This document shows positions 55,978 to 58,790 of a DNA stretch of 64,000 nucleotides, piece after piece. The first letter of the stretch is position 1, and every line of letters begins with the position of its first letter. A model generated the notes under the pieces. That model ran no database searches. It was given only the letters and a program-made list of their open reading frames with translations, and was not told the DNA's origin. The stretch lies in sequence record NC_041936.1, one strand, 5' to 3'. The DNA comes from Escherichia phage ECD7. The translations under genes were made by a program, and so were the position numbers.

Positions 55978-58790
55978 GCGTGATTGAAGGGATTAACGCA
56001 ATGGCGACGGATGAACACCCGCTACATTTAGCGCATCCGTCTACACTAGAAACTAAAATTGATTCAAACGGCATTGAATGGATTTTATCAAAGCATGATG
56101 ATAAATGGTATCCTAAAAAGTTTTCTGACTATCTGAAATTAAACAGACCGCAGAAAATAAGGATGCAAAGCACTGATCCAACAAATTATAAGTTCTTTAA
56201 AGATAGTGACAATATTCGCACGCGGTATATGCGGTTAAAGAACTTGCGAAGGGCGAATATTAAAACTCAGTATACCCCTGAAATGATCGCAGAGTGGAAA
56301 CGATGCCGTAAAGATATTGTGTATTTTGCCGAAACCTATTGCGCAATTACACACATCGACTACGGTACAATCAAAGTACAATTGCGTGATTATCAGAAAG
56401 ATATGCTTAAGATCATGCATGAAAACCGCATGAGCGCACATAAACTCAGTCGTCAGCTAGGTAAAGCACTTGATGTTAATACGCCTATTCCTACCAGCGA
56501 TGGGTTTAAACGTATGGGGGATATTAAAGAAGGTGATCAGATCTATGCGCCTAATGGTCGTTTAGTTAATGTTGTATATGCAACGGAATACCAGTATGAT
56601 CGCAAGTGCTACGAAGTTGTTTTAGATACTGGCGCTAAAGTTGTTGCTGATGCCGATCATATCTGGACTGTATACGAAAAAGTTGGCAACAAACATGTCA
56701 AGCGTGATGTTACAACTCAGGAAATGGTCGATAAGGGTATTACTACCAAAGGTCAATCCAGATTTAAAATCGCTAAGACTAAACCGATTAAGGGAGAAAC
56801 TAAAGTTCTTCCTGTTGATCCGTATACTTTAGGTTATTGGTTAGGTGATGGTCACACTGATGCAGCACGAATCACCCACCATAAGGACGATAGCGGCATT
56901 CTGACGCATTTAAACGAACAAGGCTATCATACATATACTTTTGCAGATAAACGCAATAGCAACGTTCTCACAACGTCTGCGCATGGGTTATGGGAAGGAC
57001 TTAAAACCGCTGGCGTTGCTGGCAATAAGCATATCCCTATGGAATACCAATTCGCTGATATTGATCAGCGAACTGCATTACTGCAAGGTATCATGGATTC
57101 TGACGGATGCATCAATAAAAATGGTTATGCTGAAATTACATTAAAACTGAAACCGCTTATCGATGACATTTATTCGCTGTTGTGCGGATTGGGCTTTAAG
57201 CCGAAAATGAAAGAAAAAGTGGTAAAAGGTACTGTATATTACAGAATTTCATTTAATGCATATGCAGATAAGGGTGTGTGTCCGGTTCGAATTAAGCGTA
57301 AGAAAGCAAATCTTATTAATTCTTGCGAAGATACAAGAACAGATTTTCTTTTTATTCGTGAAATTAATCCGGTTGAATCTCGTCCGGTAAAATGTATTCA
57401 GGTTGACAGCGAGGATAAACTATATCTGTGCGGTCGTGAATTTATTCCGACTCATAATACTACCGCTGTAGCAATATTCCTTGCTCACTACGTTTGCTTT
57501 AATAAAGACAAAGCTGTAGGTATACTGGCACACAAAGGATCTATGTCAGTTGAAGTTCTAGAACGTACAAAACAGGCGATAGAATTGTTACCTGATTTTC
57601 TACAACCTGGTATCGTTGAATGGAACAAGAAATCTATTGTGTTAGAAAACGGGTCTAGTATCGGCGCTTATGCATCATCACCAGATGCGGTGCGCGGAAA
57701 CTCCTTTAGTTTCATATACATAGACGAAGCAGCCTTTATTAGTGCGTGGCAGGACGCATGGTTAGCTATTCAACCAGTTATCTCATCTGGTCGTGAATCT
57801 AAGCTGATCATGACCACGACTCCGAACGGGCTTAATCACTTTTATGATATCTGGCAATCGGCTATTGATGGTAAAAGTGGTTATGTTCCATATGAGGCGG
57901 TTTGGCATTCTGTTAAAGAACGTCTTTACAATAAAGCTGATATATTCGATGATGGTTATGAGTGGTCATCTCAGGCGATCGCCGGATCTAGTCTTGAGCA
58001 ATTCTTACAGGAACATAACGCTGAATTTTTCGGTAGTTCCGGTACTCTGATCAGGGCAACCACACTATCAAGATTATCCTTCATTGACGTTGTTAACGAT
58101 AACGGGTTTTATCAGTTTGAGAAACCGAAAGAAGGTAGAAAATATGTTGCTACACTAGATTGCTCAGAAGGTCGAGGACAGGACTATCATGCATTGCAAA
58201 TCATTGATATTACTGAATTTCCTTATAAGCAGGTTGCAGTATATCACAGCAATACTACGTCACATTTTATATTACCGGATATTGTCTTTAAATATCTCAT
58301 GATGTATAACGAATGTCCAGTTTATATCGAGCTAAATAGTACGGGTGTATCTATTGCTAAGTCTCTTGCGATGGATCTTGAATATGATAATATTATTTGC
58401 GACTCATTCATAGATCTAGGGATGAAACAATCCAAAAGATCTAAAGCAATGGGATGTTCGGCACTAAAAGACTTAATAGAAAAAGATAAGCTGATCATTA
58501 ATCATAAAGGAACTATTCAGGAGTTGCGCACATTCTCCGAGAAGGGGGTAAGCTGGGCGGCAGAAGAAGGTTTTCACGATGATTTGGTCATGAGTCTGGT
58601 AATATTTGGTTGGTTAACAACTCAAGAAAAATTCGCCGAATATGCAGGAAAAGACGAAATGCGGATCGCCTCCGAAATATTCCGAAAGGAATTAGATGAA
58701 TTGGGGGAAGAATACGCGCCCGTGGTAATATATGACGGTGCAAACGGCATCGAAGAATATAGGCCGCGTGAAGGTCTAACAATGATATAA
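55974..58790 (+). CDS. 17: terminase large subunit gp17, intein-containing precursor (938 aa)
   Basis: Exteins nearly collinear with T4 gp17 (SRQLGK...[30 protein letters not shown], nuclease-domain motifs); about 330 aa longer than T4 because of the in-frame insert. Confidence 0.95.
56466..57458 (+). mobile_element. intein (331 aa) with LAGLIDADG homing endonuclease core inside the gp17 Walker A motif
   Basis: Insert ALDVNTPIP...REFIPTHN between SRQLGK and TTAVAIF; ends His-Asn followed by Thr; LAGLIDADG-like motifs LGYWLGDGH and [11 protein letters not shown]. Confidence 0.85.

Follow-up and report, generated by a model that had tools for sequence, protein, structure and literature searches.

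A probable mobile class 3 intein with a LAGLIDADG endonuclease domain interrupts the Walker A motif of the large terminase of Escherichia phage ECD7

We analyzed a 64,000-nucleotide (nt) stretch of DNA from Escherichia phage ECD7 (NC_041936.1), a Krischvirus (RB49-like, T4-related) coliphage. This whole stretch is called the window, and all coordinates refer to it unless stated otherwise. The open reading frame (ORF) for the large terminase (TerL), gp17, very probably carries a mobile class 3 intein in its ATPase P-loop. The precursor would splice to mature TerL, and the freed endonuclease would home into intein-less alleles. Judged from comparative sequence evidence, the insert is most likely an active, mobile, and splicing-competent intein. 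It divides gp17 as follows, with lengths in amino acids (aa):

55974..58790, plus strand: gp17 (TerL) precursor ORF, 938 aa, 106.8 kDa, with Pfam matches to Terminase_6N (E 1e-40) and Terminase_6C (E 4.6e-23)
55974..56465, plus strand: N-extein, residues 1-164, whose last residues are the first half of Walker A (SRQLGK), from the alignment to RB49 and T4 gp17
56466..57458, plus strand: intein, 331 aa, a HINT splicing domain with a LAGLIDADG endonuclease domain inside it, from homology and the alignment gap in RB49
57459..58790, plus strand: C-extein, from the alignment
57459-57461, plus strand: Thr496, residue 1 of the C-extein, which is the Walker A Thr and the predicted +1 splicing nucleophile, from the alignment

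The Terminase_6N and Terminase_6C domains flank the insert on its two sides, and gp17 itself is preceded by the small-terminase gene gp16 and followed by the tail-sheath gene gp18. Escherichia phages kvi and vB_EcoM_PTE-Eco09 match the gp17 region at 99.7-99.8% identity, the kvi counterpart is annotated as terminase large subunit, and IMG/VR contig UViG_2974573495_000001 shows identity with the window over 5,993 nt. When aligned to the 607-aa gp17 of RB49, the 938-aa ORF shows one gap only, at residues 165-495 (nt 56466-57458). These are exactly the limits that an earlier note, written from the letters of this DNA alone, had given for an insert within the P-loop. The insert (331 aa, 993 nt) is in frame and exact relative to RB49 and about 60 other Krischvirus phages, and the intein-less alleles of these sister phages bear out the note's claim of an in-frame insertion in the Walker A motif. 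It falls between the Lys and Thr of that motif (SRQLGK|TT), with DNA junctions GGTAAA|GCACTT and CATAAT|ACTACC, where the empty site of RB49 reads GGGAAA|ACTACC. Removal of the insert in silico gives a spliced product of 607 aa (69.5 kDa) and an intein of 37.3 kDa (computed masses). The spliced TerL aligns without gaps to T4 gp17 (PDB 3ezk/3cpe, E ~1e-281) through LSRQLGKTT. It has the architecture of a T4-type large terminase, with the Walker A motif SRQLGKT in an N-terminal ATPase and an RNase H-like nuclease at the C-terminus.

The guanine-plus-cytosine content of the insert (0.37-0.43) is the same as that of its flanks, and no compositional anomaly was found in it. A tblastn search of the window for a second copy of the insert or for other inteins returned chance-level matches only. 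We also considered a group I intron, a translational bypass, and a fused separate gene, and rejected them because the ORF is continuous and both ends of the insert are intein splicing blocks.

Searched with phmmer against all PDB chains, the 331 residues matched best the DnaB inteins of Mycobacterium chimaera (6rix/6riy, identified as the DnaB1 intein in PMC7664689) and Mycobacterium smegmatis (6bs8, the DnaBi1 intein, hereafter MsmDnaBi1), with E values of 2.5e-18 to 3e-17 over two stretches, residues 1-69 and 297-331 of the insert. Such values lie far outside what chance would give. Over these 69 N-terminal and 35 C-terminal residues, the insert is thus a homologue of DnaBi1 and DnaB1, class 3 inteins for which crystal structures and biochemical data exist. 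When the insert is numbered from its own first residue, as is done below, Ala1, Cys48, Asp62, His65, and Trp67 fall at the same residue numbers as their MsmDnaBi1 counterparts. PVKCIQVD aligns to PVRCVEVD, which holds the catalytic Cys118 of 6bs8, and IPTHN aligns to VPTHN. A search of 5.8 billion proteins yielded 114 full-length homologues (31-68% identity), and their conservation is given with the splicing elements:

56466..56504, plus strand: splicing block A, aligned to ALALDTPLPTPSG of 6bs8, with Ala1 (no nucleophile) and with Leu2 and Thr6 invariant in the family
56607..56609, plus strand: Cys48, counterpart of MsmDnaBi1 Cys48 (RKCYEV versus RPCYVV), at least 90% conserved
56631..56672, plus strand: splicing block B, in which Asp62-x-x-His65 replaces TxxH and Trp67 stands at B:12; His65 and Trp67 in 114/114 homologues
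57381..57434, plus strand: splicing block F (PVKCIQVD versus PVRCVEVD)
57393-57395, plus strand: Cys310, position F:4, predicted first nucleophile, aligned to Cys118 of 6bs8 and present in 114/114 homologues
57438..57458, plus strand: splicing block G (EFIPTHN), with Thr329 (G:5), His330, and the terminal Asn331, from conservation in homologues

Among profile databases, NCBIfam matched only in the intein portions of intein-bearing proteins. PHROG profiles named "terminase large subunit" match the intein alone, and therefore intein-bearing TerLs have been built into those profiles.

Class 3 inteins are defined by the absence of Cys, Ser, or Thr at position 1 together with Trp at B:12, Cys at F:4, and Thr at G:5, and their +1 residue is usually Ser or Thr (Tori et al., PMC2807308). 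The insert in gp17 has every one of these features, and its C-terminal end (IPTHN|T) shows the His-Asn pair followed by Ser, Thr, or Cys that marks intein C-termini. Position 1 is Ala in 110 of the 114 homologues, Gly in three, and Gln in one, and is never Cys, Ser, or Thr. Trp67, Cys310, Thr329, His65, and Asn331 are each found in all 114, and His330 in 112. The +1 residue was Ser or Thr in all homologues inspected and is Thr here. The Trp-Cys-Thr signature that the earlier note had proposed for class 3 is upheld by these counts, and the motifs it had quoted are all present: the ALDVNTPIP start, DHIW (His65 and Trp67), the block F Cys (Cys310), and IPTHN followed by Thr.

Experiments on MsmDnaBi1 (PMC6195587) and on the MP-Be DnaB intein (PMC2807308) have established what these residues do. 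In MsmDnaBi1, Cys118 (F:4) is the initiating nucleophile, Thr137 (G:5) touches His65, Trp67 packs in the hydrophobic core, and Asp62 stands in for the Thr of the class 1 TxxH motif; Cys48 is needed for splicing and is a reversible disulfide or redox partner of Cys118 (Kelley et al., PMC6195587). By homology, the gp17 insert would use the class 3 route, in which a thioester branch forms at block F.

The region between the two splicing stretches contains the endonuclease domain:

56793..57320, plus strand: LAGLIDADG homing-endonuclease domain, approximate limits, residues ~110-285, from Pfam LAGLIDADG_3 (E 1.5e-6) and Hom_end and the match to PI-SceI
56826..56852, plus strand: LAGLIDADG motif 1 (TLGYWLGDG), with acidic Asp128 at the catalytic position; Gly123 and Trp125 invariant, Gly127-Asp128-Gly129 at least 90% conserved
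57075..57107, plus strand: LAGLIDADG motif 2, with Asp213 at the catalytic position; Gly208, Asp211, and Gly214 invariant, Asp213 at least 90% conserved

LAGLIDADG_3 and Hom_end are the only Pfam models that match the insert. The former scores 28.8 bits against a gathering cutoff of 22.5, and residues 172-271 match PI-SceI with E 3e-4. This above-threshold profile, together with PI-SceI, confirms the LAGLIDADG core that had been claimed from the letters. Lys188 in block D is also conserved in the family. The insert has the two motifs, the catalytic acids, and the profile match that characterize two-motif LAGLIDADG endonucleases.

The intein is present in ten Krischvirus records and absent from about 60 at the identical site. 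All ten are plaque-forming isolates with intact ORFs, and the kvi record contains one gp17 locus. Two species, "RB49" (kvi) and "gec3s" (Makalu_002/003), include carriers, and each of them has intein-less members as well. We compared 8 intein-bearing and 9 intein-less Krischvirus loci. The insertion point is the same in all compared carriers, the ORFs are all intact, and no fixed extein difference separating carriers from non-carriers was found among these loci. Across gp16 and the N-extein (944 nt), the nearest relative of kvi is the intein-less Sf20 (1 mismatch), that of ELT3 is the intein-less JSE (3 mismatches), and that of the Makalu phages, outside their own pair, is the intein-less RB49 (7 mismatches).

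Identical intein alleles are found on different extein backgrounds; the window and FL15, for example, have identical intein DNA and differ at 9 sites in the bulk extein. The inteins form three lineages (the window group, Makalu, and ELT3) that differ from one another at 43-48 of 993 nt, and the bulk gp17 extein differs between these lineages at 5-23 of 1345 nt. Between lineages, the ratio of nonsynonymous to synonymous divergence (dN/dS) is 0.05-0.14 in the splicing (HINT) domain and 0.07-0.13 in the endonuclease domain, where synonymous divergence (dS) reaches 0.17. These sequence comparisons indicate purifying selection on both the splicing and the endonuclease parts and repeated movement of the intein between backgrounds.

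One flanking site was close to diagnostic in the same loci. At gp17 nt 489 (window 56462), the third base of a Gly codon 4 nt upstream of the junction, T is found in 7 of 8 carriers and G in 9 of 9 intein-less phages. This GGT versus GGG marker fails in ELT3. The site was possibly co-converted with the intein.

Our model of the intein life cycle is as follows. gp17 would be translated as the 938-aa (106.8 kDa) precursor, with its P-loop split between Lys164 and Thr496 (precursor numbering), and in this form would be unable to act as a packaging ATPase. Cys310 (F:4), aided by Asp62, His65, and Trp67, would attack the Lys164-Ala165 peptide bond to give a thioester-branched intermediate, and the N-extein would then be transferred to the hydroxyl of Thr+1. 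Cyclization of Asn331 would release the intein, and an O-to-N acyl shift would produce the native SRQLGK-TT Walker A motif in the 607-aa (69.5 kDa) TerL. The freed 37.3-kDa intein would bring with it the two-motif LAGLIDADG endonuclease. In a mixed infection, this enzyme would cut intein-less gp17 at or near CAGCTAGGGAAA|ACTACCGCT, the expected target region in the gp17 DNA of RB49 or Sf20 being CTCAGTCGTCAGCTAGGGAAA|ACTACCGCTGTAGCAATATTC, and repair from the intein-bearing genome would copy the element in (homing). We infer splicing because the ten isolates are viable with an interrupted gp17 (a single locus in kvi) and because dN/dS is ~0.1. With a single gp17 locus in kvi and a P-loop cut in two, DNA packaging would have to depend on splicing.

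A second unusual feature of gp17 lies shortly downstream of the intein:

57500..57840, plus strand: hyperdivergent mosaic patch within the C-extein, 39-370 nt past the junction, from the comparison of variable sites

Compared with RB49, the patch has up to 34 mismatches in a 90-nt interval (up to 38%), mostly synonymous, while the rest of the gene is ~99% identical. Amino-acid changes cluster just after Walker B, where RB49 reads DECAFIQNWTDCFL, and comprise Cys-to-Ala, Gln-Asn-to-Ser-Ala, Thr-to-Gln, and Cys-Phe-to-Ala-Trp replacements. The full patch is common only to kvi and PTE-Eco09, and the intein-less JSE has its 3' part. With a third haplotype in the Makalu phages, at least three haplotypes circulate. 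A search for a donor outside Krischvirus found nothing closer than ~81%. Old tracts of co-conversion or recombination beside a double-strand-break hotspot would account for the appearance of the patch, which may or may not be linked to the intein.

Several results weigh against a mobile, splicing class 3 intein. The Hint and intein models of Pfam gave no match at E ≤ 1 on either the ORF or the insert. The earlier note had named a Hint-domain profile search as a test that could refute an intein; in Pfam this test comes out null, and read literally it would mislead. We rejected the null as an argument against an intein because the direct homology to solved inteins is strong, and it is this homology that settles the identity of the insert as an intein despite the Pfam result. 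A single-sequence AlphaFold model was unusable (predicted local distance difference test [pLDDT] 38.6; predicted template modeling [pTM] score 0.28). Splicing, the identity of the first nucleophile, and endonuclease activity are all predicted from sequence. The patch shows no strict linkage to the intein: four intein carriers have the RB49-type patch, and the intein-less JSE has part of the patch of the window. Finally, the intein is found in only 10 of about 70 Krischvirus records, though the 40 nt around the target are near-invariant in the intein-less phages. This low share of carriers could reflect weak homing or a fitness cost, and the polymorphism could have been spread by general recombination and not by endonuclease-driven homing.

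The last two points would fit an intein that splices while its endonuclease is inactive or nearly so, its patchy occurrence arising from homologous recombination between co-infecting phages and occasional precise loss. T4-like phages recombine very frequently, and both the scarcity of carriers despite a conserved target and the uncoupling of the divergent patch from the intein would follow. However, the endonuclease domain has a dN/dS of only 0.07-0.13 at a dS of up to 0.17, both catalytic Asp positions and Lys188 are conserved, and related mycobacteriophage TerL LAGLIDADG inteins cut intein-less alleles in vitro (PMC5050341). We therefore regard an inactive endonuclease as rather unlikely. 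The route of splicing could also differ from the one proposed. In a class 2-like mechanism, Thr+1 would attack the N-terminal junction directly, and Cys310 would have a structural or activating role only. The assignment of the mechanism comes from sequence only, and Ala1 by itself also fits class 2 (PMC2807308). Yet class 2 inteins are without the Trp-Cys-Thr triplet, and the KlbA example uses Cys+1 (PMC2807308), whereas the triplet here is complete and invariant in 114 homologues, the +1 residue is Thr, and the nearest relatives are demonstrated class 3 inteins; such a route is very improbable. We give practically no credence to the insert being a dead remnant in a gp17 that is non-functional or bypassed: each of the ten carriers is an isolate that has been propagated and has one intact gp17 locus, the catalytic residues are all intact, purifying selection is strong, and the window has no second copy.

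A further possibility, which we consider unlikely, is that splicing is conditional. Under oxidative, chlorine, or zinc stress, the Cys48-Cys310 pair would trap the precursor and gate terminase maturation and packaging. The position of Cys48 is shared with MsmDnaBi1, and its conservation in the family is 90% or more. In MsmDnaBi1, splicing requires this residue, which pairs reversibly with the catalytic Cys in a disulfide (PMC6195587). Zinc and reactive chlorine are also reported to inhibit MsmDnaBi1. A catalytic need would explain the conservation of Cys48 equally well, however, and a lytic phage whose infection cycle is short cannot afford slow splicing; the lytic cycle of T4-like phages lasts about half an hour. 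That the intein would act as a post-translational gate on packaging, with Cys48-Cys310 holding TerL inactive in stressed cells and freeing it on recovery, is by analogy conceivable and in our estimation quite improbable.

Inteins of the kind proposed for gp17 have precedents. TerL P-loop inteins, and class 3 TerL inteins related to mycobacterial DnaB inteins, are already documented, and splicing and endonuclease activity have been shown for several actinophage TerL inteins (PMC5050341). Class 3 LAGLIDADG inteins in actinophage TerL have also been described, together with extein switching to Cas4 via similar nucleotide-binding-site sequences (bioRxiv 10.1101/2025.01.02.630785). The kind as such, a class 3 LAGLIDADG intein in a TerL P-loop, is abundant and already described. 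Literature searches on inteins in connection with RB49, Krischvirus, coliphages, or gp17 turned up no description of this one, and the Krischvirus intein appears to be undescribed so far.

Most homologues are inserted after Gly-Lys, with Ser or Thr at +1. The host proteins are terminases from three Pfam families, interrupted in Walker A, and a dCTP deaminase (RLEGK|SSLGRLGL); a few homologues stand after Trp-Lys in PD-(D/E)XK/Cas4-type nucleases (DWK|GL...). On sequence evidence, the family appears to follow GK|S/T junctions through unrelated proteins. Most close metagenomic relatives (P0009-P0120) occupy the dCTP deaminase site, which is not a P-loop but presents the Gly-Lys|Ser context of the terminase sites. 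One metagenomic protein, P0024, starts with CLAVDTPIPTPD, with Cys1 instead of Ala1, after SSQVGK, in an alignment that covers the first half only. It may be a Trp-Cys-Thr intein with an N-terminal nucleophile.

Relatives of the intein, many of them in TerL P-loops, were detected in 827 annotated phage records, including those of Mycobacterium (300), Salmonella (185), Vibrio (65), Stx2a-converting (49), Klebsiella (37), and Escherichia (26) phages. The family thus occurs in no fewer than 26 records of Escherichia phages and 49 of Stx2a-converting phages, which contradicts the statement of a 2024 paper that inteins are unreported from coliphages (PMC11162368). We checked the insertion site in five phage relatives. 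Three of them carry the same signature at the GK|T of TerL: JNE01 (an Asteriusvirus jumbo coliphage), B23 (a cyanophage of the Kyanoviridae), and Slicko01 (an Alishewanella phage). The Cjw1-like mycobacteriophage JeTaime reads RKNGK|...|TELL, and LittleE has another site. In vB_EcoM_JNE01 (Asteriusvirus), the TerL site reads ARQMGK|...PTHN|TTVAAA, at 1501-2520 of the locus examined.

An intein at least 95% identical to that of Krischvirus was found only in the ten Krischvirus records, the next phage record being 41% identical; by sequence, the Krischvirus intein is a distinct branch. The closest relative outside is P0001, a metagenomic partial T4-like TerL, which we analyzed from its protein sequence. 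Its intein, 68.6% identical, occupies the same insertion site, and the identity of its exteins is 62-74%. Because the P0001 intein has diverged about as much as its host gene, this comparison suggests long residence of the intein in T4-like terminases. The intein DNA had no match in 5,426 complete E. coli genomes.

Three GenBank records (PP400778, PP358550, and PQ306574) name the intein-bearing terminase "replicative DNA helicase (DnaB)," presumably owing to the likeness of the intein to mycobacterial DnaB inteins. One of the three carries the automatic note "intein-containing." The terminase is at 4001-6817 of the loci examined from PP400778 and PP358550.

Among solved structures, the gp17 intein is best matched by the mycobacterial DnaB mini-inteins. 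M. smegmatis DnaBi1 (6bs8/6own) and M. chimaera DnaB1 (6rix/6riy) share with it Ala1, Cys48, Asp62-x-x-His65, Trp67, the F:4 Cys, and Thr-His-Asn. Their N-terminal 69 residues align without gaps, they are likewise inserted in a P-loop after Lys, and identity over the splicing parts, judged by eye, is ~45-50%. Unlike the gp17 intein, they have a short linker and no endonuclease, interrupt a bacterial DnaB helicase, and are followed by Ser at +1 instead of Thr. The mycobacteriophage Bethlehem DnaB intein, the class 3 prototype, is comparable by its published description (PMC2807308): it has no N-terminal nucleophile, has Trp-Cys-Thr and Thr+1, resides in a phage, and is full-length with an endonuclease and of similar size (341 aa). 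It differs in having Pro1, Ser at B:7, and a helicase host.

The actinobacteriophage TerL inteins (TerL1-a P-loop site, Cjw1-like, LittleE, APunk) belong to the same family, with LAGLIDADG endonucleases and 33-39% full-length identity. In JeTaime, the intein splits Walker A of TerL between Lys and Thr, as in gp17 (RKNGK|...PTHN|TELL). In contrast to gp17, the hosts are of the Terminase_1 family, and the LittleE site reads HEFK|...|TAVN. The inteins of JNE01, B23, and Slicko01, in TerLs of other phage families, are 33-41% identical and share the GK|T insertion point, Ala1, HxW, the block F Cys, and THN. We found no characterization of these three as class 3 in the searchable literature; inteins in Rak2/K64-1 terminases have been noted (PMC5259590). 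PI-SceI, the yeast VMA1 intein, has a homologous endonuclease whose two LAGLIDADG motifs are likewise nested in HINT, but it belongs to class 1 (Cys1) and its host is a eukaryotic V-ATPase.

Most work on class 3 inteins to date concerns mycobacteria and mycobacteriophages. The Krischvirus intein would hardly surprise intein specialists; what it offers is an E. coli/T4-like system that is easy to work with. It lies in an essential late gene, and its T4-like host phage can be grown on E. coli K-12. Sister phages that are near-identical in the flanks examined and have no intein, such as the pair kvi and Sf20, make fitness cost, homing frequency, co-conversion tracts, splicing kinetics, and possible conditional splicing accessible. 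Should the packaging gate be real, this would be a naturally fast-splicing class 3 intein evolved for E. coli within a lytic infection cycle. A class 3 intein forced to splice quickly in E. coli could become a protein-engineering tool. The comparison also corrects the three GenBank DnaB annotations to terminase.

The window contains one more homing-endonuclease gene, upstream of gp17:

53290-53874, plus strand: free-standing GIY-YIG homing endonuclease gene, with Pfam SegE_GIY-YIG (E 9.5e-7) and an I-TevI DNA-binding domain

This gene is placed between the neck genes gp13 and gp14, and its counterpart in Phi1 is annotated as SegC. Sister Krischvirus phages have different endonuclease genes, or none, at the gp13/14 or gp14/15 junctions. 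The region from gp13 to gp15 is therefore a second polymorphic hotspot for mobile elements, 2-3 kb upstream of the intein.

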